Shown piece by piece: positions 1,463 to 12,375 of a stretch of 64,000 bases of DNA; the stretch's first letter is position 1; each line of letters opens with the position of its first letter. Origin of the DNA: Candidatus Micrarchaeota archaeon (GTDB lineage: Archaea > Micrarchaeota > Micrarchaeia > Micrarchaeales > CABMGC01); the NCBI GenBank assembly GCA_021850625.1, contig JAJZLJ010000027.1:23389-87388 (forward strand). The letters run 5' to 3'. The translations under genes were made by a program, and so were the position numbers. A model generated the notes under the pieces. It was not told the origin of the DNA. It worked only from the letters and a program-made list of their open reading frames with translations, and ran no database searches.

Positions 1463-1906
1463 CTGCATAGATACATTAAAGGAGCACGTAGTGAAAGAGA
1501 ATTATTAAATAGATTTTATGGTCTTGGATACTCTGTGCTTAGAAGTGCTGGCTCAGGAGTAAATGCTCTTGGACCAGATATTATAGCAATAAAGGACAAG
1601 ATCTGTTTATCGTTTGAGTGCAAGGCATGGGAGAAGAATAGGCTAAGTATAGATAATGATGCGTATAAGAAATTGTATGAGTGGGAGCAAAACACTAAAT
1701 TTCCAACATATATAGCATGGAGGATGAATGGAAAAGGTTGGTTTTTCATAAAACTAAATGAGCTAAAACACGGAGATAAAGACCATAGTATAACAAAAAT
1801 TAAAACATTGGAGATAAATAGGGTTTTTGATGATGTGCTTATAAAAAATGATGAAGATAAAATTGCATTTGTTGAAAGTCCAGCAATTGATGTTGTTCAG
1901 ACTTAA
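1463..1906 (+). CDS. hjc: Holliday junction resolvase Hjc; the start codon is non-canonical or uncertain
   Basis: KGARSERELL...GYSVLRSAGSG...PDIIA...LSFECKAW matches the archaeal Hjc pattern (KGxxxEREL, RSAGS, D..A, ExK). The conserved N-terminal part lies upstream of the first GTG (1535), in the same frame and after the stop at 1442-1444. Confidence 0.75.
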   Translation: MHRYIKGARSERELLNRFYGLGYSVLRSAGSGVNALGPDIIAIKDKICLSFECKAWEKNRLSIDNDAYKKLYEWEQNTKFPTYIAWRMNGKGWFFIKLNELKHGDKDHSITKIKTLEINRVFDDVLIKNDEDKIAFVESPAIDVVQT

Positions 1907-1916
1907 TAAAATGAAT

Positions 1917-4121
1917 TTAATCCAATAAAAGTATATTTTCTTTACCTCCAAAAACATTAAAGTTTCTTGAATCCTTCTTTTTTTCTGCACATAAAAGTAA
2001 AGTTGCTCTTTTTTTATTTAGTATAGAGGTGGTTATTATGCATCCGGATTCGTCAGTTATACCTTTAAAAATCTCTTCGCCGCAATATGAAATAATTATT
2101 TTTTTGCCAACTAAAGCAATAAATTCCTTATCAAGAAGCCTAATTTTTGTTGTAGGATTTAATTCCATATCTAATACTTCATCGATATGCTCATAATTTT
2201 GAGATGGTATAAATCTATTTGTTTTTACAAAAACCGAACCCACAGGCTGACGTGAATCTATATTACTTTTTATAGGAGTAATGGCGCAGACACCTTGCTC
2301 AAGAATCTTTAATTTATTTATTACGCTATCAAATTGTTCTGAATTAAAAAGAAGATCATTTGCTGCATATTTTGAGGTATCGGGACTTTGTCTAAAATAA
2401 AGTTTAAATTGACACAATCGTCTTATCTCTATTTTTATATCTGAAACGCTATGAGTTATAAGGAATAATCCTACTCCTTTTTTCCTGAAATCTTGTATTC
2501 TATTTAATATATCAGATGATGCAGTAGAGTCTTCCTCACCAAAAATTAACTGCGCTTCCTCTATGCAAAGAAGCATGCGTAGTTCTTTATCTCCAGTAGT
2601 ATCAAAAAGTTCTGTATGCATGTATATCTGATTTAGTAATAATGCGTAATAGAAAGGTTTCATTGAATTGCTTACCATTGAAAGATCAAAGATTACTCCT
2701 TCTTTAAGAAGATTTTCCATATTAACTCCATCGGAATAAGCAAACTGGCTTTTTTGAAGCATTAGACGCATAGGCTCCAACGCGGCCAGTATATTCTCGC
2801 CATGTTTTGAAAATTTTACTCCGGTGTTGGAACGCTTACCATGCTTTTCTACAATCTTTTCGAATATTGAATCATATACATCTTCTGGTTCAGGGGTATA
2901 AGTTTTTGAGTATATATTGTTAAATGCACTTAGCAAACATTTTTCCATTGCATTTTTATAAGGTCCAGCGTTTGATGCAGAGGAAATAAGCATTGCCAGA
3001 TTTTCATAAAATGATTCTTTATTTACTCGCTTATCACAATTAAAAAAAGATAGTTTAGGAACTTTAGAATATAACTTTATTACTAACATATTTGTGTATT
3101 TTGCAAAAAGATTCCATTCATTTGTAGGAGAGATGATTACAGTATAAGGTCGCTTACCTTCAAGCACCTGTTTAAGAATAAACATTGATGATGAAGTTTT
3201 TCCAGTTCCAGGTACACCAGTTACAAGAGTACCAAGATTTAAAGCATTTTTAGGTATTTGTATTTTATTTTTTCCCTCAGAAACAGCATCCTCTAAATAA
3301 TTTCCTATTAAAATTTCTCCTTCAATTTCTGTAAAAAATGTTTTTATTAAAGGTTTAATATGAATTATATCTGAAAATATCAATGCTGTAGCTGCTCTTT
3401 TCTCCGAAAAAGGTATAGCATCATATTTTTTAGCTATTGAAAAAGGACTGTGATCTAAATTCAATGATAATACATACTCATCTTGAAACAAAATCTTTGA
3501 TTTTAAATAAGAGATAGTATCTGAATCTTCTTTTTCAGTAAAAATTGAGATCATGTAAGATCTTCCATTAGATAAAATAATTTCATTGAGCATATCAAGT
3601 ATGGATAGTAATGTTTTTCTCTCTTCGGAATTATAAAAAAGTTCAGATTGAACTGATTCACTTGTTCCGCTAGAAATATTTCTAGAAGAGCTCTGTCTGT
3701 TTACACGAATCTCCATTGAACTAAGTCTTTCCTCCAGTTTTTCCTTTACTTCTTTTGCATGAAGTATATTTGAAGGTATAAAAAAGATAAAAAAAGAACT
3801 ATTCTTATTTCTTAATACGGAGTATACCTCTTTGAACTTTTGCTCTGGTTGATGTTTTTCATCAAAAGTTATATCAAAATATGGCACTATACGCAAAAAT
3901 TGCTTGGACTTTATGGCAAAGGTGCTTTTTTTAAGCTCTATTCCTGGCATGGAATTTAAAAATTTTTCTATTGAATCATTTTCTTCTAGAATAAGATAAG
4001 TCTTAGAGGTAGCAAAATCATGATAAAATCCGAAGGGTTTACCAAGAGCAGCTTTTATAAATAAATAATAATCAAGTTTTTCTGGAATTGAACTTAATAA
4101 AAATATTTGTGCGTTATCCAT
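1917..4121 (-). CDS. Large soluble P-loop ATPase of the HerA/VirB4/FtsK class (last gene of the translocon-like operon)
   Basis: The ORF is 734 aa. Walker A is LVTGVPGTGKTSS, Walker B is RMLLCIEEAQLIF, and a downstream KKGVGLFLITHSVSDI block follows. No TM segment is visible. The N-terminal domain (about 290 aa) and C-terminal domain (about 100 aa) are unassigned. Confidence 0.6.
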   Translation of the reverse strand: MDNAQIFLLSSIPEKLDYYLFIKAALGKPFGFYHDFATSKTYLILEENDSIEKFLNSMPGIELKKSTFAIKSKQFLRIVPYFDITFDEKHQPEQKFKEVYSVLRNKNSSFFIFFIPSNILHAKEVKEKLEERLSSMEIRVNRQSSSRNISSGTSESVQSELFYNSEERKTLLSILDMLNEIILSNGRSYMISIFTEKEDSDTISYLKSKILFQDEYVLSLNLDHSPFSIAKKYDAIPFSEKRAATALIFSDIIHIKPLIKTFFTEIEGEILIGNYLEDAVSEGKNKIQIPKNALNLGTLVTGVPGTGKTSSSMFILKQVLEGKRPYTVIISPTNEWNLFAKYTNMLVIKLYSKVPKLSFFNCDKRVNKESFYENLAMLISSASNAGPYKNAMEKCLLSAFNNIYSKTYTPEPEDVYDSIFEKIVEKHGKRSNTGVKFSKHGENILAALEPMRLMLQKSQFAYSDGVNMENLLKEGVIFDLSMVSNSMKPFYYALLLNQIYMHTELFDTTGDKELRMLLCIEEAQLIFGEEDSTASSDILNRIQDFRKKGVGLFLITHSVSDIKIEIRRLCQFKLYFRQSPDTSKYAANDLLFNSEQFDSVINKLKILEQGVCAITPIKSNIDSRQPVGSVFVKTNRFIPSQNYEHIDEVLDMELNPTTKIRLLDKEFIALVGKKIIISYCGEEIFKGITDESGCIITTSILNKKRATLLLCAEKKKDSRNFNVFGGKENILLLD

Positions 4122-4130
4122 AAATATAAC

Positions 4131-4397
4131 CTAAATAAGTAGTGAAAGTACAATAAGAAGAAATGACATTGAAAATAGGTATATGCCGATTTTCTTATCG
4201 AAAATAATTAATCTTTTAGTTTTTTTGAAGAATGTGTAAAGAATTATTACGTTAAATGAACAAAACAGTAATGAGAGGATTATTGGTTCGCTTAAAAATA
4301 TAAAGATAGAAAGTTCAAAGAAAAAAAGACTTATAAAAATAATAGAATTTAATATCGAACTGTTTTTTTTGTATGGTATTGAAAACATGTTGTTCAT
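4131..4397 (-). CDS. Small integral membrane protein (about 88 aa from the internal Met)
   Basis: It has three hydrophobic segments. The start overlaps the upstream stop by 4 nt when Met12 of the tracked ORF is used. Confidence 0.4.
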   Translation of the reverse strand: MNNMFSIPYKKNSSILNSIIFISLFFFELSIFIFLSEPIILSLLFCSFNVIILYTFFKKTKRLIIFDKKIGIYLFSMSFLLIVLSLLI

Positions 4398-4585
4398 AAA
4401 ATCAACAATATTAAAGCCGAAAGCACGCATAACAAAATAAAACCAAAAAGCTTTTCAATAAAAAAGAGATGTATGTGTTTATTTTTAGATAATAAAACTG
4501 AAAACGATGTGAAAATTCCTAAAATTCCTGAAAAAACACCTATTGCAATACTTATCAAAAGAAAAAAATTGTATTCTAACAACAA
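4394..4585 (-). CDS. Small integral membrane protein (63 aa, two hydrophobic helices)
   Basis: The sequence is hydrophobic and lies within the tightly packed operon. Confidence 0.4.
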   Translation of the reverse strand: MLLEYNFFLLISIAIGVFSGILGIFTSFSVLLSKNKHIHLFFIEKLFGFILLCVLSALILLIL

Positions 4586-4586
4586 A

Positions 4587-5147
4587 TCACCCTAATTTGA
4601 CATATTTTATTTCGGAGTATAGTATTTCCCATAGAAGAATGGATGCATCTTTATTAAACTCCAGACATTTGCTTTTCAGCTTATTAATATCGTTAAAAAA
4701 TATTATTTTTTGTGACCATTTTTTATTATTTTTATTTTCAGTAATACTTAAAAGATAGGGAATCGGTAAATGTTTATCGATTTTTATTTTTTCATTTTTA
4801 ATTATTGAAAAATCGGTTGAAAATCTATTTACTATAGCCTCTCGAATGTTTTTTTCTCCCGAATAAATATAGATGCCAAGACATTGTATCTTCTCTGAAA
4901 GTATTGCCAATAAAAATTCGTTTGCTTCTATATTGGTTTTATTTTTATTTATAACTTCTTCCAAAGTGTAGGCAGATTTGTCTGAGATTATTTTTAACGA
5001 GGAATTTTCATTAATTGGCAGATAATCCAATGATGTTAAAATATGTATTTTTTTGTTTGAGTAATTTATCATCCGCAATAAATACATAAAAAATATGCCA
5101 AAGCCCATTATTAAAAACTCCCAAAAGTATGCATATAACGCGTTCAT
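4587..5147 (-). CDS. N-terminally membrane-anchored protein, function unknown
   Basis: The 186-aa ORF has an N-terminal TM segment (FWEFLIMGFGIFFMYLL). Its start overlaps the upstream gene by 4 nt. Confidence 0.45.
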   Translation of the reverse strand: MNALYAYFWEFLIMGFGIFFMYLLRMINYSNKKIHILTSLDYLPINENSSLKIISDKSAYTLEEVINKNKTNIEANEFLLAILSEKIQCLGIYIYSGEKNIREAIVNRFSTDFSIIKNEKIKIDKHLPIPYLLSITENKNNKKWSQKIIFFNDINKLKSKCLEFNKDASILLWEILYSEIKYVKLG

Positions 5148-5830
5148 GTTTTCACCATCGTAAATTCATGTTTATTATTCCATATTATTGCGTACCCTAA
5201 AGACTTTGCTTTCTCTAGAATGTTTAGTAATAATTCTTCCTCTATTCCGAGATCTTTTGATGCTATTTTAAGATTTATTCTTCCTGAGTATTTTAATTGA
5301 AGATTCATCGTAACTAAACGCAGAATTGTAGATTTGGATATCGAAATTTCATTTTTTAATTCTTTGTTTTCCCTTAGCAATTGTATTATTCGTTTAGACA
5401 AAATAATGTCTTCGTTATATGTATTTTTATATCGGTTTTGATTATTTAGCTCGTCTACCTCAAAAGCTTCTTTTGATAAAATGTTTAAAATAAATGGATA
5501 AAGTTCTGAAAGTTCTATAGAGTAAGAAGATTTTATAAAAGAGAGTATTAATAGCAAACGGAGTATTGCTTCTTTTAAAAAGAGTATTGGAGATTGCATA
5601 GAATAGGTTATAATTGAGATATTTGTTTTTGAAATTTCTAATATAAAGTAATGTTGCTTGAATCCTGATTCATTTATTGAATATCTTAGGATATCTTTTG
5701 AATACATCAATGATAAACCTGGATGATCTAAAAGAAGAAGTTTTATATCCTCTAAACTTGAATGCGCCTTTCCTTGAATTGTTATTTTTGAAAAAAGATA
5801 GTTTTCTTTATTATTCGATTTCATATGCAC
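5144..5830 (-). CDS. Soluble protein of unknown function with a possible C-terminal winged-helix domain
   Basis: The 228-aa ORF ends in IASKDLGIEEELLLNILEKAKSLGYAIIW, which looks wHTH-like. It overlaps the upstream ATPase gene by 20 nt. Confidence 0.4.
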   Translation of the reverse strand: MHMKSNNKENYLFSKITIQGKAHSSLEDIKLLLLDHPGLSLMYSKDILRYSINESGFKQHYFILEISKTNISIITYSMQSPILFLKEAILRLLLILSFIKSSYSIELSELYPFILNILSKEAFEVDELNNQNRYKNTYNEDIILSKRIIQLLRENKELKNEISISKSTILRLVTMNLQLKYSGRINLKIASKDLGIEEELLLNILEKAKSLGYAIIWNNKHEFTMVKT

Positions 5831-6926
5831 TTACCTCTATAGCTGCAGAGTATGAATCTGCTATATCTCTTTCATTTATTCCAAGAGAACGCAGTTGTGA
5901 GATAATCTCAAGTCTATCTGCATCCAATTTTATGAGTTCGCATATCAAAAGATGCAATGTTGTTGATTTTTGAGAGCGAAGTTTAGATATTAAATCAGTC
6001 GAATCTTTTTTGGAAATCTTCTTTACCATGTTTTCAACAATTGATTGTTTTAATTCTACCATTTTATCACCAAATGTAACACTTATAAGTGGATCTATTT
6101 TTATTCCAGATATTTTTTTAATCTGAAATATGCTTCTTTTGCCAGTTTTGTATATTTGTATAGCTATACAACTTCCTACATCTAGATTTTTTATCTTTTC
6201 AAGATATTCTTTAGGAAATTCATAATTTATTGCAAGAGTTTCTATGTTCTCGCTATTTTGTGTGCGGAATACAAAAATCGAAGCAACATTGGAAAGAGCA
6301 TTTAGTTTTATGTCATCTAAAAGTTGAGAGGCTAGGATTATTCCAGTAGAGTACTTTCTTCCTTCTCGTATTATTGTCTCAATTCCTGAATTTGAGCCTA
6401 GAAGCTTCCATGCCTCATCGATTATTATGAATAGATGCGGTTTAGAATAGAGATCCCTACTACGCATAACTTCCACTAAACTTGATAAGACCTCCTTGCC
6501 TTTTACTAATTTATCTTTCTCGTGTAGATTCTCTAAAGAAAGATAGCATAATTTAGGAAGATTTTCATAATTTTTATTTATAAAAAACTCAGAGGTATAG
6601 CGTTCTGCTTTTACAAACTCTGCAAATTCATGATACTCTCCGGTGAAATCAATAAGAAACACAATAGCATCAATACAACCATAAAGCTTTAACATAAGAT
6701 TTTTTACAAGATAAGTTTTTCCACTTCCAGTCATTCCAACAACAAAAATATGCGGATTTACTAGAATGTCAAAGTTCAAGAAAAAGGGCTTTGACATTCC
6801 GCTTGACATTCCCATGAAAACGCCATTGCTTGCAGATGTCAGCATAGATAGATAATTTTGCTCTGATGTTTTAGGTATAAAGAACAGTTTTGATAAAGTT
6901 TCAGTACCTATTTTTTCGAGTTTCAT
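5811..6926 (-). CDS. VirB4/TrbE/CedB-like ATPase domain protein
   Basis: The ORF is 371 aa. Walker A is VVGMTGSGKTYLVKN. Walker B is the VirB4-type DEAW (LFIIIDEAWKLL). REGRKYSTGIILASQLLDDI follows. Confidence 0.65.
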   Translation of the reverse strand: MKLEKIGTETLSKLFFIPKTSEQNYLSMLTSASNGVFMGMSSGMSKPFFLNFDILVNPHIFVVGMTGSGKTYLVKNLMLKLYGCIDAIVFLIDFTGEYHEFAEFVKAERYTSEFFINKNYENLPKLCYLSLENLHEKDKLVKGKEVLSSLVEVMRSRDLYSKPHLFIIIDEAWKLLGSNSGIETIIREGRKYSTGIILASQLLDDIKLNALSNVASIFVFRTQNSENIETLAINYEFPKEYLEKIKNLDVGSCIAIQIYKTGKRSIFQIKKISGIKIDPLISVTFGDKMVELKQSIVENMVKKISKKDSTDLISKLRSQKSTTLHLLICELIKLDADRLEIISQLRSLGINERDIADSYSAAIEVSAYEIE

Positions 6927-6930
6927 AAAA

Positions 6931-7650
6931 TCAACTAAAAAATCCCAGTAGTTCCTCGCCTTTTATTATTTCGTAGTTTATCTTTAGTGCAGCGGAGAAG
7001 GCATCTGCTATGCGTTCAAGATTTTTATAAGATTGTGATGTAGCATCTACCTCATTGTCAGAGATATAGGTTGTTTTGAGAAATAATGATACGTCATAAG
7101 CTTTTCCAGAGGATTTTATGCTTTCTATCTCGCTGCCTAAAAGCTCTATCTCGCGTTTTATATTGTTTATCTTATCATATCGATCTGTTTTGATTTTAGT
7201 GAGCATTATTTCCTTCATTCTTCGCTTAGTCTCAAGCGGTTCAATTACCTTCTTTTTATCTATTTCAGACATTGATATGGAATATTCAAACGGTTCATGT
7301 ATGCTTTCTATGAGAGAACGGAATGAATCAGATGATAAATTTGGGGAGGCTTCAGGTTTTATAATAGCTATTGAAACGCTTTTAATATGCCTGCCTTCAC
7401 GTTTAAAAACACAAGATATGTTGCTGCTTAAAATATAATTATTTGATACCTCTATTATTCGTGAATGCTTGAGTAGTAGATTATTTATTATATGACCCGT
7501 ATGTAGGTATATTATAGATAGAAGAAGAAAAATGGAAGAAAGAAGGACTATGAAAAGATAACCTGACAGTATGCTTAATATTAAAATTAATATACAGGTT
7601 ACATAAATAATATAAAAATAAATCTTTTTTGTTAATTCACGTTCATCCAT
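6931..7650 (-). CDS. Membrane hairpin plus cytoplasmic domain protein (candidate VirB3 / VirB4 N-terminal-domain analogue)
   Basis: Two N-terminal TM helices are followed by a soluble region of about 170 aa. The gene sits 4 nt upstream of the DEAW ATPase. Met15 is used as the start because it removes the overlap with the upstream gene. Confidence 0.4.
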   Translation of the reverse strand: MDERELTKKIYFYIIYVTCILILILSILSGYLFIVLLSSIFLLLSIIYLHTGHIINNLLLKHSRIIEVSNNYILSSNISCVFKREGRHIKSVSIAIIKPEASPNLSSDSFRSLIESIHEPFEYSISMSEIDKKKVIEPLETKRRMKEIMLTKIKTDRYDKINNIKREIELLGSEIESIKSSGKAYDVSLFLKTTYISDNEVDATSQSYKNLERIADAFSAALKINYEIIKGEELLGFFS

Positions 7651-7654
7651 AATC

Positions 7655-8650
7655 TCACAAGATATTAAATTTACCAAAGAAAGCTTCTGCACCTAAAATC
7701 TGTGAAAGCTCGCGTATAGAGATTCCTGTTATTATAAGACTAAAGATAGGAAGAACAAAGGAATATACAATTAAATAAGCTACAAAGCCCAGTAAACCAT
7801 TTATAAGATTAGTTATAGCTGTAGAGATTCCTGTTATGCTGGAGGTTATAGTATTGAGTATGCTCGGAACATCAGTATAATTACTTTTTTGTGCCTGTTC
7901 CCCTGAATTGAGTAATGTTCCCTGAAGATTTGATGCAGATAAACTTATCTCAGATAATGAAGTTGCATTTACATTGATTGTGAATAATGACGCCAATGAA
8001 GCATTCATTACATATGAGAGTGGAAGCACCACATATAAGCCGATGGCCGTTGCCATTAAAAAACCACCCAGCTTTCTAGTAGGATAAAAACTTCTAAGTA
8101 TCATTCCAGAAGGAAGTATAATAGTTAATGAGGATACGGCTGCAAAGAGCAATACCGAAGATTGCACAACAGTGCTTATAGCTACCGTACTTAATATACG
8201 AACTATATATTGTATCTGGCTTATCAATGGGCTTACAACGTAGGATAAAGAAAATGTAACTATGAAAAAATCTATCTTTGCAGCTGCTATAAGTCCAAGG
8301 GCTGTATTAAGAGAGATTAAACCTACTATCATTGTACTTACAGTTGTAAGAACTGATGAATGAGTAATACCGCCAAACGTGTAGGAAGAACCCACAAGAT
8401 AATTATTTGCAAGGCAAATCGCAGGATTTTGAGCTAAAAATGCGCTGCAATTAATGGTTGTACCGTTTTGAAGAACGAGCTGATTTATTAAAATGCTTAT
8501 AGCTCCATTATTTGAAAATAATACAAATAAACTCCCGATTATTATACCATTAAATATTGACTCGAACAGTTCTTTTCTTCCAAAATCCTTAAGCTTTCTT
8601 TCACTTAAGGCATATCCTAATCCAAGAGATATGCCGCTTATTGCAAGCAT
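7655..8650 (-). CDS. Polytopic membrane protein (VirB6/TrbL/CedA-like by position and topology)
   Basis: The 331-aa ORF has about 7-8 hydrophobic segments, is Gly/Ser/Thr-rich, and has no soluble domain. Confidence 0.45.
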   Translation of the reverse strand: MLAISGISLGLGYALSERKLKDFGRKELFESIFNGIIIGSLFVLFSNNGAISILINQLVLQNGTTINCSAFLAQNPAICLANNYLVGSSYTFGGITHSSVLTTVSTMIVGLISLNTALGLIAAAKIDFFIVTFSLSYVVSPLISQIQYIVRILSTVAISTVVQSSVLLFAAVSSLTIILPSGMILRSFYPTRKLGGFLMATAIGLYVVLPLSYVMNASLASLFTINVNATSLSEISLSASNLQGTLLNSGEQAQKSNYTDVPSILNTITSSITGISTAITNLINGLLGFVAYLIVYSFVLPIFSLIITGISIRELSQILGAEAFFGKFNIL

Positions 8651-8707
8651 TATTGCTATTAAATAAATAGCTATAGTATAGCCGTAAAAATCAAGCAGAG
8701 ATTCACC

Positions 8708-9109
8708 TTACACAGTATTTGCAGTAACATTTGTCAAAACATTTGCAGTGGCATTGGTAAGCAAATGAGTAGATGCTACGGCAAGTCCAGTAGATGCTAC
8801 TGAGAGCACCGCCACTATTATGGCACCAACAATTATGTCTATAGAAGCACTGTGAAAAGTAGCTCGTTTATAGGTAGGAAATAATTGACCCACAGCATAA
8901 AATATTCCTGCAAGTATAAACAATACTGCACTTAGTATAGGACCTATTTGTGTAAGTATACCCTGTACAGAGTTTAGAGTAGATACAATATCAAACGAAA
9001 TCGAATACGCTCCTACTATCTTAATTGTTAGACCTAGCAGGAAAAACAAAAAAGGTATTTTTATATATTTTACAATATCTTTTCCACAATTACTATATCT
9101 TTTATTCAT
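8708..9109 (-). CDS. VirB2/TrbC-type pilin-like small membrane protein (first gene of the operon)
   Basis: The 133-aa ORF starts with a signal-like segment (IPFLFFLLGLTIKIVGAYS). Two hydrophobic helices follow, separated by a short basic loop (PTYKRATFHS). Confidence 0.45.
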   Translation of the reverse strand: MNKRYSNCGKDIVKYIKIPFLFFLLGLTIKIVGAYSISFDIVSTLNSVQGILTQIGPILSAVLFILAGIFYAVGQLFPTYKRATFHSASIDIIVGAIIVAVLSVASTGLAVASTHLLTNATANVLTNVTANTV

Positions 9110-9248
9110 ATACCCAACCTTATATTTAAGTATATGAATTATACTTGAATAAATATTTAAATCTTTTGGTTTGTAAGGCTTTGTAACTTAATTAGAATTT
9201 TAAAGTATTAAACTGTAAATTCAGTTTACCCATAAATCCTAAATATAA

Positions 9249-9881
9249 TCAGGTAATTATGGAAAGCATAACACTTAAAAATAAGTCAGAAGAATCTTCG
9301 CAGAAATCAAGCACATCATCAGATAGATACGCAAGATCTGTAAGGTGATAAAACAACTTAAAATCAATATCATTAGAATATGCGAAGTCTAACATAGAGT
9401 CTCTTAACGTATCACCTTCTTTTTCTATCAGCTTTATGCTAGATCTATAAGCCCTCATTTTGTTTATACTTTCAGTATCGTGCATTTTAGAAAGAAGTGT
9501 AATTGAGGTTTCTGCATAACCATTAAAGGATAATAAAGTTGTTTTAAGATAATTTGATGTTTTTTGATCTTTAATTTTATATCGCAAAAATTGCCGTGAA
9601 AGCTTAAATATCGAATCGAGAATACTTTCTTCTTTATTTAATATTTGTAACATGTCATCTATAAGATTTGGAGCTATTGCACCTGATGTTATAAGATGTG
9701 AAAACTTAAGATACTCGTTTGATGCTTTATTTTCTATTTTTTTGATATTTTCTATATTACTTTTGTTTTTTACTATTAATGAAAATTCTTGATTGGCCTT
9801 AAGCGCGAGCTTTGTTACATCTCTAGTTTGTAAGAATAAGTTTTGTTCGCCACTCATGAGTATTTTTTTGAAAATATCCAT
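9249..9881 (-). CDS. All-helical protein, possibly DUF47/PhoU-like
   Basis: The 210-aa size and N-terminal pattern resemble the DUF47 family. The call is weak. Confidence 0.3.
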   Translation of the reverse strand: MDIFKKILMSGEQNLFLQTRDVTKLALKANQEFSLIVKNKSNIENIKKIENKASNEYLKFSHLITSGAIAPNLIDDMLQILNKEESILDSIFKLSRQFLRYKIKDQKTSNYLKTTLLSFNGYAETSITLLSKMHDTESINKMRAYRSSIKLIEKEGDTLRDSMLDFAYSNDIDFKLFYHLTDLAYLSDDVLDFCEDSSDLFLSVMLSIIT

Positions 9882-10538
9882 TTATTTCACTATTTTTGTA
9901 TCATCCAAATTATTTAAAACCGAGTATATTCTATTGGCTTTTTTCTTTCCTATTTTCTCTATTTTTGCAAGTTCTTCTTGATTGGAATTTGAAACATTCT
10001 TTATAGAACCAAACTGCTGAAGAAGTTTTACTGCAATTTTTGTCCCAACTCCGGGAATTGAAGATAAAATAAGAAGCTGCCATTCATAATTGGTATGTGC
10101 TTTCTTTAATCCAATTAAACGTGGTTCCCTTTTTTCAGTTGTTTGTTCCTTCTCTGCAAAACTTGATAAAAGATAGGAGGTTTCAATTGGATTTAGAGAG
10201 TTTATCACTTGTATATTGTATTCACGATATAATTTTAGTATTGTCCCTAATATGACATTTCTACCTAATCTTGTTTCTGAAATCTCTCCTTCTAGTATAA
10301 GTATTGGTTTTTCAAAACTTCTACACAGCCTATCTGCTTGTTCAAAGAGTCTAGAATCGATTATGGAATTTTCAAAATCAGAGATTGTTTTACGTTCTAC
10401 ACACATCCGATCAGAAAGAATATAATCGCCTATTGGAAGTTGTTTAAAAGAAATGTGTATATTGTTTTGGACGAGATTTTCTAGAAGATCATTATTGCGT
10501 TCGCGATTATCTACTATTATCAAAAGTTCAGCCATCAT
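9882..10538 (-). CDS. xpf: Short archaeal XPF/ERCC4-family nuclease with a C-terminal (HhH)2 domain
   Basis: The ERCC4 core is IVDNRERN...GDYILSDRMCVERKTISDF. The HhH part is IPGVGTKIAVKLLQQFGS...IEKIGKKKANRI. Confidence 0.75.
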   Translation of the reverse strand: MMAELLIIVDNRERNNDLLENLVQNNIHISFKQLPIGDYILSDRMCVERKTISDFENSIIDSRLFEQADRLCRSFEKPILILEGEISETRLGRNVILGTILKLYREYNIQVINSLNPIETSYLLSSFAEKEQTTEKREPRLIGLKKAHTNYEWQLLILSSIPGVGTKIAVKLLQQFGSIKNVSNSNQEELAKIEKIGKKKANRIYSVLNNLDDTKIVK

Positions 10539-10680: not shown

Positions 10681-12375
10681 TTAATATGATAGTTCTTTTG
10701 AACGTTCTTTTATTTCTTTTTCTATATTATTTATAAATTCAGATAGCTCAACATTGAATTTTTGCTTGCCAGAACGTGAGCGCACAGTAATTTTAGAGGC
10801 TTCTTCCTCTTTTTTACCTAGAACTATAGTATATGGAAGTTTCATAGTTATTGCTTCTCTTACTTTGTACTCAAGCGTTTTATCAGAGATATCAAGTTCG
10901 GTTCTTATTCCATGAAGTTTGAGTTCTTTGTATATTTTATCTGCGTAGTCATTGGTTTGTTGAGATATAGATAGTACCCTGACTTGTATTGGAGAAAGCC
11001 ATGTAGGAAATTTGCCCTGATAATGTTCAACCATAACTGCAGTAAAACGCTCTATCGAACCGAGTATAGCTCGATGTATTATTATTGGAACCTGAGTGTG
11101 ACCATCTTCTGCAGTATACTCAAGATTAAATCGTAATGGAAGTTGATAATCTATTTGTATTGTTGCACATTGCCAACTTCTGCCCATAGAATCGATAACA
11201 TCGAAATCTATTTTAGGACCATAAAATGCACCATCCTTTTCCTTAATTCCATACGACATCGAATTAGCTTCCAAGGCACTTTTTAATGCATTTGTAGCCT
11301 TCTCCCATAACTTCTCGTCCCCCATATGTTCATCTGGCATTGTAGAAAGCTTAGCATTAAATTGCATGCCAAAAACATTATAGGTTTCTTTCACCATCTT
11401 TAACAACGTGATCATCTCATCTTTAAGTTGATCTTCTCTTACAAAGATATGCCCATCGTCTTGAGTAAGTTCTTGTACACGTAGAAGTCCGCTTACGACG
11501 CCAGACAATTCACGCCTATATATCTTATCGAATGTTGCTGTTCTAAATGGAAAATCTCTATAACTCCATTTTCTTGATTTGTAAATTAATATGGTTGATG
11601 GACAATTCATAGGCTTAAGACCATGATCACCCGATTCAGTTTCAAACATAAACATATTTTCTTTATAATGTTCTAGATGTCCGCTCACCTGCCATAATGC
11701 AATATTTGATACTACAGGTGTGCTTGTCTCTAGATAATCGTACCTAAACTCTTCATCACGCATTAGTTTTATTAGTTCACGATATATAGTATGACCATGT
11801 GGATGCCAATAGACCATTGCAGGGGATACTTCCTGAAAACTGTATAAATCTAGTCTTTCACCTATTGTTCTATGATCTGTTTCGGGAAGACCTGCCCATG
11901 AACTTTTTCTTACTATTGCCGTATTTTTGCTTATTGGTTTTACTTTGGTATAGGTTTTTGTCGTTGCATCTAATCCATAACTTCTAGACTGCTCTGCGAG
12001 AGGATGAGCTTTTATATCTAGAATAAGTTTTTTGTTCCAGCCAAATGGAGCTTTTACAACAGTTAATTCCTTTGGAACATTTTTATACATATATTCGAGA
12101 ATTTGCATTGCTTCTTTTGGTGAAGCAAGATTTCCACTTAAATGTGCAAAGGGATATATAACTAGAGAATTTCTATCCAATTTCTTCATGAACTCATAAG
12201 TATCAAACATGGCTTTTTCTGCCATTTCGTTTGTATCTCCAACTTCTACCGAAACTAAAATAACAAGCGTATCTTTAATTATAGTTCTTTCTTTTTTTAC
12301 ATCATCGTAAAGACTTGCTTCTGGACGTATAGGTTCAAATGTTATGCTATCTACGTCCATTTGAAGTATTTTCAT
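10681..12375 (-). CDS. thrS: Threonyl-tRNA synthetase, archaeal type
   Basis: The 564-aa ORF has an archaeal N-terminal editing-like domain. Class II core motifs are present (HRTIGERLDLYSF, MNCP, FRTATFDKIYRRE, RAILGSIERF), along with an anticodon-binding C-terminus. Confidence 0.9.
   Translation of the reverse strand: MKILQMDVDSITFEPIRPEASLYDDVKKERTIIKDTLVILVSVEVGDTNEMAEKAMFDTYEFMKKLDRNSLVIYPFAHLSGNLASPKEAMQILEYMYKNVPKELTVVKAPFGWNKKLILDIKAHPLAEQSRSYGLDATTKTYTKVKPISKNTAIVRKSSWAGLPETDHRTIGERLDLYSFQEVSPAMVYWHPHGHTIYRELIKLMRDEEFRYDYLETSTPVVSNIALWQVSGHLEHYKENMFMFETESGDHGLKPMNCPSTILIYKSRKWSYRDFPFRTATFDKIYRRELSGVVSGLLRVQELTQDDGHIFVREDQLKDEMITLLKMVKETYNVFGMQFNAKLSTMPDEHMGDEKLWEKATNALKSALEANSMSYGIKEKDGAFYGPKIDFDVIDSMGRSWQCATIQIDYQLPLRFNLEYTAEDGHTQVPIIIHRAILGSIERFTAVMVEHYQGKFPTWLSPIQVRVLSISQQTNDYADKIYKELKLHGIRTELDISDKTLEYKVREAITMKLPYTIVLGKKEEEASKITVRSRSGKQKFNVELSEFINNIEKEIKERSKELSY

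Follow-up and report, generated by a model that had tools for sequence, protein, structure and literature searches.

A conserved chromosomal operon of Micrarchaeota that probably encodes a minimal translocon derived from type IV secretion systems

We analyzed a window of 64,000 nucleotides (nt) from a Candidatus Micrarchaeota archaeon (assembly GCA_021850625.1, contig JAJZLJ010000027.1, positions 23,389 to 87,388), in which nine genes are tightly packed on the minus strand. Our best explanation, which we consider probable, is that these genes form a chromosomal, vertically maintained and minimal translocon of Micrarchaeota that builds a pilus, derives from a type IV secretion system (T4SS) and resembles the archaeal Ced and Ted systems. 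Of the three components at the T4SS core, two could be identified: the pilin is of the VirB2 type, and the motor is of the VirB4 type and comes with the N-terminal domain specific to it. For the third, VirB6, there is a protein that fits in position and topology only. The cluster is chromosomal, it has no relaxase or membrane-anchored coupling protein and its ATPases are nearest to CedB and CedD. The domesticated Ced and Ted machines show the same combination of features, which is why we prefer this explanation.

Coordinates are given as positions within the window and genes are numbered 1 to 9 in order of transcription. A first-pass annotation, made from the sequence alone, had described nine open reading frames (ORFs) at 1917-9109. 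All nine were verified, and the described spacings of 57, 4, 4, -20, -4, 1, -4 and 9 nt are recovered when ORF8 starts at 4397. The nucleotide-binding motifs it had named are present (GSGKT and DEAW(K) in the protein of 371 amino acids (aa), GTGKT and IEEAQ in the 734-aa protein), and a hydropathy scan agrees with its membrane topologies, the 734-aa protein having no transmembrane (TM) segment. The features are as follows, with the evidence for each in brackets.

8708..9109, minus strand: gene 1, predicted VirB2/TrbC-type pilin precursor, 133 aa (Pfam family matches and TrwL PDB profile match)
7655..8698, minus strand: gene 2, polytopic membrane protein, 331 aa from ATG 8650 or ~347 aa from CTG 8698 (ORF, family N-terminus)
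6931..7650, minus strand: gene 3, two-TM hairpin plus cytoplasmic alpha/beta domain, 239 aa (AlphaFold2 model, Foldseek)
5811..6926, minus strand: gene 4, predicted motor ATPase of the FtsK/HerA/VirB4 superfamily, 371 aa (Pfam, NCBIfam, PDB profile)
5144..5830, minus strand: gene 5, soluble protein with coiled coil and probable C-terminal winged helix, 226-228 aa (weak PDB profile matches)
4587..5147, minus strand: gene 6, protein with N-terminal TM anchor, 186 aa (ORF, family alignment)
4394..4585, minus strand: gene 7, two-TM hairpin protein, 63 aa (hydropathy, positional conservation)
4131..4397, minus strand: gene 8, membrane protein with 2-3 TM segments, 88 aa, or 99 aa from 4430 (hydropathy, positional conservation)
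1917..4121, minus strand: gene 9, predicted soluble second ATPase, HerA/CedD-like, 734 aa (Pfam, PDB profile, NCBIfam on family)
9110..9248, minus strand: A+T-rich intergenic region, likely the operon promoter/leader (sequence inspection)

Each of the nine proteins was scanned as a single sequence against Pfam, NCBIfam, PHROGs and PADLOC, which was informative only for the two ATPases and weakly so for the pilin. The pilin was assigned through its family. The protein of gene 1 consists of a signal peptide ending in ...VGA ahead of YS, a hydrophobic helix, a basic loop (PTYKRATFH), a second such helix and, at the C-terminus, a tail with many N-x-T sequons. The same layout runs through the family alignment, in which an AxA-like signal-peptide end is followed by a helix, the basic loop P-x-x-K-R-A-x-F-H, a second helix and an N-x-T/S-rich tail. 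Among the 31 family members, 24 match the T4SS_pilin family (PF18895, best 3.8e-6) and 19 match TrbC/VirB2 (PF04956, best 1e-6). The top PDB match of the family profile is TrwL, the VirB2 of plasmid R388 (E=0.038), in register over the helix-loop-helix. From these profile matches gene 1 is assigned to the VirB2/T4SS-pilin family, as the first-pass annotation had proposed from topology. NCBIfam gave no match for genes 1 and 2.

Genes 3 and 4 had been proposed to be a split VirB3-VirB4, and the structural comparison bears this out. When the AlphaFold2 model of gene 3 (predicted local distance difference test, pLDDT, of 80) was searched against PDB with Foldseek, the top 11 matches were all TrwK, the VirB4 of R388 (7o42, 7o43, 8rtb, 8rtd), with probabilities of 0.96-1.00, E-values of 6e-4 to 2e-2, about 160 aligned columns and no other comparable match. 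The hairpin lies outside this match, and the aligned portion corresponds roughly in size to the soluble domain. From this we take it to be a match to the VirB4 N-terminal domain, although the output does not give the TrwK residues that were aligned. Structural comparison of the model thus shows the soluble domain with the predicted VirB4 N-terminal-domain fold, and the hairpin is VirB3-like by topology.

The adjacent gene 4 carries the Walker A motif GMTGSGKT, the Walker B motif IIDEAWK, which resembles the DEFWK of TrwK, and a C-terminal helical domain. Its own HerA N-terminal barrel and VirB4 N-terminal domain are both absent; the protein starts about 45 residues ahead of Walker A and is therefore too short for the HerA barrel. 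Since gene 4 starts 4 nt past gene 3 and has no N-terminal domain, the pair would reconstitute a VirB3-VirB4-like protomer from two polypeptides. Matches to Pfam AAA_10 (8.4e-14; 51.8 bits, cut-off 27.5) and DUF87 (1.3e-11; 45.4 bits, cut-off 23.2) clearly place the predicted protein in the FtsK/HerA/VirB4 superfamily. Its best NCBIfam match is CedB (1.3e-12), and CedB is the top NCBIfam family in all 56 gene-4 homologues (best 5.7e-25), ahead of HerA_antiphage, CedD, TraC, the CD1110 VirB4-like family and VirB4_CagE; TraC, VirB4_CagE and the CD1110 family are also matched by 56/56. Alignment of the gene-4 profile with the TrwK C-terminal domain by hhalign gave a probability of 42%. Gene 4 is further matched by the PADLOC HerA and mad8 models and by the PHROG 'terminase large subunit' and FtsK-like families, and a few automatic annotations already tag the ATPase 'VirB4 component' or 'type IV secretory system ... 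protein'. The proposal that gene 4 is a VirB4-type ATPase thus stands for the superfamily and for the DEAW motif, while its sequence scores fit HerA-type proteins as well.

Gene 2 lies between the pilin and the motor genes. The 57 nt that separate it from gene 1 (8651-8707, minus strand) had been taken for a spacer and are probably coding. They are in frame with gene 2 and with the gene-1 stop and encode LLDFYGYTIAIYLIAI, which matches the conserved family N-terminus; relatives begin MLSFYGYTIAIY... In place of the ATG or TTG start of these relatives there is a CTG at 8698-8696, 4 nt past a GGTGA motif, so that the true gap is probably ~9 nt. Three independent assemblies carry the identical CTG-start sequence. 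This suggests a non-canonical CTG start; if translation instead begins at the ATG at 8650, the first TM helix would be truncated. In the predicted protein, at least five segments cross the membrane; two invariant cysteines lie in an extracellular loop, and part of the sequence is rich in S/T/N. Its AlphaFold2 model (pLDDT 82, predicted template modelling score 0.74) is a bundle of very long helices. Only its position and topology make the protein a candidate for a VirB6/CedA-like platform or channel.

The arrangement of these genes is conserved across Micrarchaeota. We collected 88 related loci, of which 8 were found by looking up identical proteins and 80 (the best of 160 matches) came from a set with a single genome for each GTDB species, and scored gene presence with iterated hidden Markov models on six-frame ORFs in 82 non-redundant loci. 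All 88 are from Micrarchaeota (DPANN), including the cultured ARM-1 (AP024486.1) and closed chromosomes, and a 100% identical copy of the 371-aa ATPase is found on metagenome and NCBI contigs. The first-pass annotation had called for a check of synteny, and the order pilin, polytopic protein, hairpin protein and ATPase was found in 64 of the 71 loci with sufficient upstream DNA. Gene 2 adjoins the pilin gene in 77 of 88 loci, gene 5 stands immediately after the ATPase in 73/80, and median spacings in the related loci are 4, 0.5, -4 and -17 nt through genes 1 to 5. Throughout the main clade, the positions of genes 6, 7 and 8 are filled by an anchored protein resembling gene 6, a two-TM ORF of ~60 aa and a three-TM ORF of ~90 aa, whose sequences drift. 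The flanks vary by genome and are housekeeping genes (aminoacyl-tRNA synthetases, ribosomal proteins, Spt4, Rpb7, TBP and enzymes of the tricarboxylic acid (TCA) cycle). Such conservation of the arrangement is far above chance expectation.

Deeper Micrarchaeota lineages carry a variant that we call type B (L064-L088 and L102; e.g., L072:7038-11131 and L102:9001-13499, cited as locus and position). It combines a ~80-aa pilin without signal peptide with a ~480-aa ATPase that has a ~100-residue insert between Walker A and B, downstream of which lie gene 5, an ORF of ~50 aa and, in many cases, a soluble protein of ~430 aa. One metagenome-assembled genome (MAG), MAS3.bin65, holds both types (L022 main, L078 type B), which may reflect paralogy or bin contamination. 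In another, KM4364-28 (L021:9001-10110), the ATPase gene appears interrupted in an otherwise complete cluster; no full-length ATPase ORF was found in this locus and only a 209-aa partial product (P0044) is recorded, which could be a pseudogene or an assembly error. At the ARM-1 locus (L063:6900-11074) genes 1-4 are present and the downstream genes are diverged (176 and 143 aa). No gene-9 homologue was found near the ARM-1 cluster; the adjacent downstream 793-aa protein was considered for this role and rejected, being unrelated on comparison.

The remaining genes are less readily assigned. Gene 5 has no match in Pfam, NCBIfam or PHROGs, and its profile gives weak winged-helix matches in PDB at the C-terminus (MarR, BirA, DeoR and ESCRT-III winged helix, E 0.02-0.4), from which a C-terminal winged-helix domain following the coiled coil is probable. 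Gene 6, seen in about 50 main-clade loci, has a TM anchor, a poorly conserved linker and a C-terminal domain. Gene 9 has the Walker A motif GVPGTGKT and the Walker B motif CIEEAQ, whose EEAQ resembles the EEAH of HerA, between N-terminal (~290 aa) and C-terminal (~130 aa) domains without assigned fold. It matches HerA_C (1e-4), Zot (3e-4) and DUF87 (9e-3) in Pfam and the HerA structure 8wiv by PDB profile (8e-5). CedD is the top NCBIfam family for the gene-9 family and is matched by 14 of its 22 members (best 7.9e-13), the window protein alone giving no match. Gene 9 is thus best described as a predicted soluble ATPase of the HerA/FtsK superfamily with CedD as nearest curated family. With a ~730-aa ATPase gene no more than 4 kb away in 30 of 69 loci, it is accessory.

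Taken together, the CedB matches of gene 4 and the CedD matches of gene 9 agree with the 'Ced-like' label of the first-pass annotation. CedB and CedD each join a TM segment, a VirB4-N-terminal-like domain and a HerA/VirB4 ATPase, and both are required for DNA import (PMC11868833). Ced and Ted are domesticated T4SS with VirB2, VirB6 and VirB4 homologues that have no relaxase and still move DNA (PMC9905601). The Micrarchaeota operon shares with Ced (Sulfolobales/Desulfurococcales; CedA, CedA1, CedA2, CedB, CedD, CedE) a small, chromosomal, relaxase-free, T4SS-derived gene set (PMC11868833, PMC9905601), with a two-helix VirB2-like pilin, a polytopic membrane protein, small two-helix membrane proteins (compare CedA2) and two HerA/VirB4-type ATPases for which CedB and CedD are the best curated matches. 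In both, a membrane anchor and a VirB4-N-terminal-like domain stand ahead of the P-loop. In Micrarchaeota, however, the TM segments and N-terminal domain are encoded apart from the ATPase, gene 9 has no TM segment, and the main-clade pilin has a cleavable signal peptide whereas CedA1 has none. The ATPases miss the CedB/CedD equivalog cut-offs, gene 2 has no CedA similarity detectable by profile searches or Foldseek, and the genes form a single tight operon in a DPANN lineage. DNA import by Ced is induced by DNA damage; no link to ultraviolet or DNA damage is known for the Micrarchaeota operon.

Comparison with the description of Ted (Thermoproteales; TedA, TedB, TedC) shows a signal-peptidase-I-type pilin leader as in TedC, a HerA-like ATPase commonly alongside, a chromosomal location and no relaxase (PMC9905601). 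It differs in that no ParA/VirC1-like or Rad50 gene is present here and in that TedB is a full-length VirB4, whereas the Micrarchaeota motor is split. The VirB/Trw system of R388 has the same order VirB2, VirB3, VirB4, a pilin that aligns (TrwL), a TrwK N-terminal part similar to the gene-3 model and a comparable Walker B (DE[AF]WK). Unlike it, the Micrarchaeota operon lacks VirD4, a relaxase and homologues of VirB1, B5 or B7-B11, its motor is a split VirB4, and homology to VirB6 is undetectable; an outer-membrane complex, not to be expected in an archaeon, is missing as well.

A further parallel is found in Patescibacteria (candidate phyla radiation), whose chromosomal T4SS have VirB2-like pilins, no relaxase and are essential for epibiotic growth (PMC12102498, PMC12857230). 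These are likewise ultrasmall host-dependent organisms with reduced genomes in which the system is phylum-wide, chromosomal and mostly relaxase-free (PMC12102498, PMC12857230), and their pilins match PF18895/PF04956. The Patescibacteria systems are nevertheless of the bacterial mating-pair-formation class FATA (MPF-FATA), with a full-length VirB4, recognizable VirB6/PrgH, VirB8 and VirB1 and often VirD4, none of which is recognizable in the Micrarchaeota operon.

Our search of the literature on Micrarchaeota or DPANN together with T4SS, conjugation or pilin found no description of this cluster. The available part of a December 2025 review of T4SS names only conjugative plasmids (pNOB8-type, pT33-3) as archaeal systems, without DPANN. 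The sole DPANN case found is a VirB4/TraG-like domain proposed in giant SPEARE-type proteins of nanohaloarchaea (PMC10266531). In our reading the operon is a third lineage of domesticated T4SS-like machines in archaea, next to Ced and Ted, and it seems to be the first seen to span a phylum within DPANN. Its distinguishing points are the occurrence in Micrarchaeota, the split VirB4 and the fixed operon of 8-9 genes.

Based on these assignments we propose how the machine may work. After membrane insertion and loss of its signal peptide, the gene-1 pilin would polymerize into a thin conjugative-type pilus or tube, with the basic loop facing the lumen and the glycosylated C-terminal tail facing outward. 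Gene 2 and the small membrane proteins of genes 6-8 would, from their position and topology, form the platform or channel out of which pilin is drawn. Gene 3 would anchor the motor, its hairpin acting as VirB3 and its soluble domain, of the VirB4 N-terminal fold, recruiting the separate ATPase of gene 4; we infer this association from the translational coupling and the split-domain logic. Gene 5 would serve as a cytoplasmic adaptor, possibly binding nucleic acid, and gene 9, where present, as a second, CedD/HerA-like translocase. The most likely job of such a machine is contact-dependent transfer of macromolecules between cells. Our first guess at its cargo is DNA, taken up or exchanged as in Ced, the alternative being material taken from the host cell. 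DNA is favored by the affinity of the ATPases to CedB/CedD and by the probable winged-helix partner; exchange with the host is favored by the obligate symbiont biology and by phylum-wide retention in genomes of 0.6-1.5 Mb.

Several results weigh against this explanation. The window pilin alone reaches only a sub-threshold E=0.17 against Pfam TrbC, so that the pilin assignment rests on the family. For gene 3, the match to the VirB4 N-terminal domain is structural only, with marginal E-values and a query-normalized TM-score of 0.36-0.40. There was no sequence-level signal for gene 3 beyond profile noise in searches of PDB sequences and Pfam profiles or with hhalign, and comparisons by hhalign with the single R388 sequences TrwK, TrwM and TrwI outside the ATPase domain gave probabilities of about 0.1-0.2% in all three cases. 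For gene 4, all NCBIfam scores are far under the curated cut-offs (47 against 700 bits for CedB with the window protein), the PDB profile scores HerA-type proteins (1e-20) above the Thermoanaerobacter VirB4 4ag5 (4e-10), and no CedB structure is among its PDB matches.

Gene 2 adds to these points, as neither sequence profiles nor Foldseek detect similarity to VirB6, TrbL or CedA. It has no match in Pfam, NCBIfam or PDB sequences; profile searches of genes 2, 3 and 5 against PDB sequences and Pfam brought up only noise (TM helices of ABC transporters, coiled coils and weak winged-helix matches). Its model matched only BAR-domain and ABC-transporter TM-domain structures in PDB (R388 TrwI included), none significantly, and nothing significant in BFVD. 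Alignment of its profile with the single TrwI sequence by hhalign gave a probability of 0.1%. The VirB6/TrbL/CedA-like label of the first-pass annotation thus holds for position and polytopic topology and finds no support in sequence or fold; any homology to VirB6 may lie beyond the reach of these searches. The gene-2 family is also found as tandem arrays without an ATPase or pilin gene within ~8 kb. It comprises 2418 clusters at 50% identity, of which the best 150 relatives were inspected, and no Pfam domain was found in any of 60 distant members.

Two further candidate links for gene 2 were set aside. A phage 'TrbL' protein at rank 14 for the model (E=0.5) is at noise level, and an hhalign comparison of the pilin and gene-2 profiles, considered for the published CedA1/CedA relationship, placed the helix-loop-helix on the first two gene-2 TM helices (probability 2.5%, E=0.018) and was not counted as evidence. 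As for the arrays, one locus holds six gene-2 paralogues of 318-726 aa beside a 1257-aa secreted protein (L100:5849-13312), and another holds a 1457-aa family member amid other large proteins (L101:6786-22374). These tandem arrays resemble the proliferated, extended VirB6 genes of Rickettsiales.

The alternative that survives best, and which we regard as possible, differs from the preferred explanation in cargo only: the operon would be a T4SS-derived machine for an adhesive or host-contact filament or for protein secretion, with no DNA transfer. Such a role would suit the absence of a relaxase and of a membrane-anchored VirD4-type coupling protein and the obligate episymbiotic life of Micrarchaeota, and it has a precedent in the relaxase-free chromosomal T4SS that Patescibacteria need for epibiotic growth (PMC12102498, PMC12857230). 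Cryo-electron tomography has also shown thin filaments on ARM-1 and nanotubes of protein that link it to its host (PMC11329633), which point the same way. However, CedB and CedD, to which the two ATPases are nearest, serve in DNA import, gene 5 probably has a winged-helix domain, and Ced and Ted are relaxase-free yet move DNA (PMC9905601).

We consider it unlikely that the cluster is a membrane complex around a HerA-type ATPase, unrelated to T4SS and working in defense, DNA repair or the cell envelope, with a two-helix protein that mimics a pilin by hydrophobic composition. The top PDB matches of the ATPase profile are indeed defense-system HerA proteins (8wiv at 1e-20, 8j4u and 4d2i), the PADLOC HerA and mad8 models match the ATPase, gene 9 has its EEAQ Walker B and HerA_C match, and gene 2 has no VirB6 match. 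Yet Pfam, NCBIfam and PADLOC found no NurA, Sir2, nuclease or other defense partner among the nine proteins, the ATPase has no HerA N-terminal barrel and its neighbor gene 3 bears the predicted VirB4 N-terminal-domain fold. CedB scores above every HerA model in 56/56 ATPase members, the pilin matches are family-specific and in register, and universal retention in very small genomes is unusual for defense islands. This alternative keeps some weight because gene 4 is not placed in a VirB4 or HerA clade and gene 2 has no assignment, and it leaves the pilin and the VirB4 N-terminal-domain fold unexplained.

The first-pass annotation had described the operon as a resident cellular system rather than an obvious plasmid. 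Consistent with this, neither the nine proteins nor the genes called within ~10 kb, in this genome and six relatives, include a relaxase, a VirD4-type coupling protein, an integrase, or a replication or capsid gene. Searches of IMG/VR returned only generic ATPases of 22-30% identity and no gene-2 relative, PLSDB gave only partial matches below 31% identity, and PHROG matches of the operon proteins were confined to the ATPase fold. T4SS genes are usually borne by mobile elements, the PHROG 'terminase large subunit' and FtsK-like families match the ATPase and an insertion-sequence transposase lies ~5 kb away in one strain variant, but an integrated conjugative element, plasmid or provirus, whether active or a remnant, is very improbable given the conserved synteny amid different housekeeping genes (tRNA synthetases, ribosomal proteins, Spt4, Rpb7 and TCA-cycle genes) in dozens of genomes, the cluster composition (GC 0.303 against 0.332 in the remaining window), the lack of a nearby tRNA gene and the negative viral and plasmid searches.

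The window as a whole has a GC content of ~33%, and its nearest tRNA genes are far from the cluster (41.8 and 63.7 kb). Downstream of the operon are the Holliday-junction resolvase Hjc (1535-1906, plus strand) and a phosphodiesterase; upstream are a 210-aa protein without assigned function (9249-9881, minus strand), Hef/XPF (9882-10538, minus strand), threonyl-tRNA synthetase (10681-12375) and an acetyltransferase. DNA-repair genes thus stand on both sides here, Hjc on one and Hef/XPF on the other, the latter abutting the 210-aa protein with zero gap. Elsewhere, an Nre-family gene abuts gene 9 in L004/L005 (L004:14987-16054) and an ERCC4 gene lies ~4 kb upstream in L102; association of repair genes with the cluster is not general across loci. 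There is also variation between strains: L001, from another sample, diverges from the window assembly (L002) ~4.7 kb upstream of the operon (window beyond ~13870), and the divergent segment (L001:1-3060) carries a DDE_Tnp_1 transposase gene.

Within the operon, ribosome-binding motifs resembling GGTGA/AGGT precede genes 1, 5, 6, 7 and 9, with AGGT 7 nt ahead of the gene-1 ATG. Alternative starts in open frame exist for gene 3 (GTG at 7692, upstream) and gene 8 (ATG at 4430, giving 99 aa); for gene 5 the ATG at 5824, preceded by a GAGGT motif, is the likelier start. Genes 7 and 8 (4131-4585) are absent from the public gene calls of the same genome, in which a 40-aa opposite-strand ORF is called instead. 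A scan for bacterial-type promoters and terminators found fewer promoter-like sites than in shuffled sequence; its consensus is bacterial and not applicable to archaea.

Attached to host archaea, Micrarchaeota and other DPANN live with tiny genomes and cannot make many of their building blocks. For the passage of material between DPANN and host, a conserved chromosomal machine derived from conjugation offers concrete candidate genes. In ARM-1 and its host, cryo-electron tomography has revealed intercellular protein nanotubes with an outer diameter of 6.7 nm and a lumen of 4.4 nm, which its authors ascribe to the host, as well as, on the ARM-1 side, a barrel-like docking platform and thin filaments (PMC11329633). 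Conjugative pili are 7.4-8.7 nm across with lumens of 1.6-2.6 nm, so that the dimensions match those of the nanotubes only loosely. ARM-1 carries genes 1-4, and it is speculation on our part that the cluster builds or receives these structures. More broadly, and tentatively to the point of doubt, the operon would be the DPANN counterpart of the essential Patescibacteria T4SS, a phylum-wide translocon that builds a pilus or tube to obtain host DNA, nucleotides or other cytoplasmic goods and that would supply the symbiont side of the ARM-1/Metallosphaera docking platform or the filaments or tubes.

If our preferred explanation of a T4SS-derived translocon is true, domesticated T4SS extend beyond Crenarchaeota, where Ced and Ted are found. 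A VirB4 that is naturally split between its N-terminal and ATPase domains would help to explain how the ATPase ring comes together with VirB3 and the VirB4 N-terminal domain. The parallel with the Patescibacteria T4SS further suggests that two unrelated radiations of reduced symbionts have converged on one type of machine.

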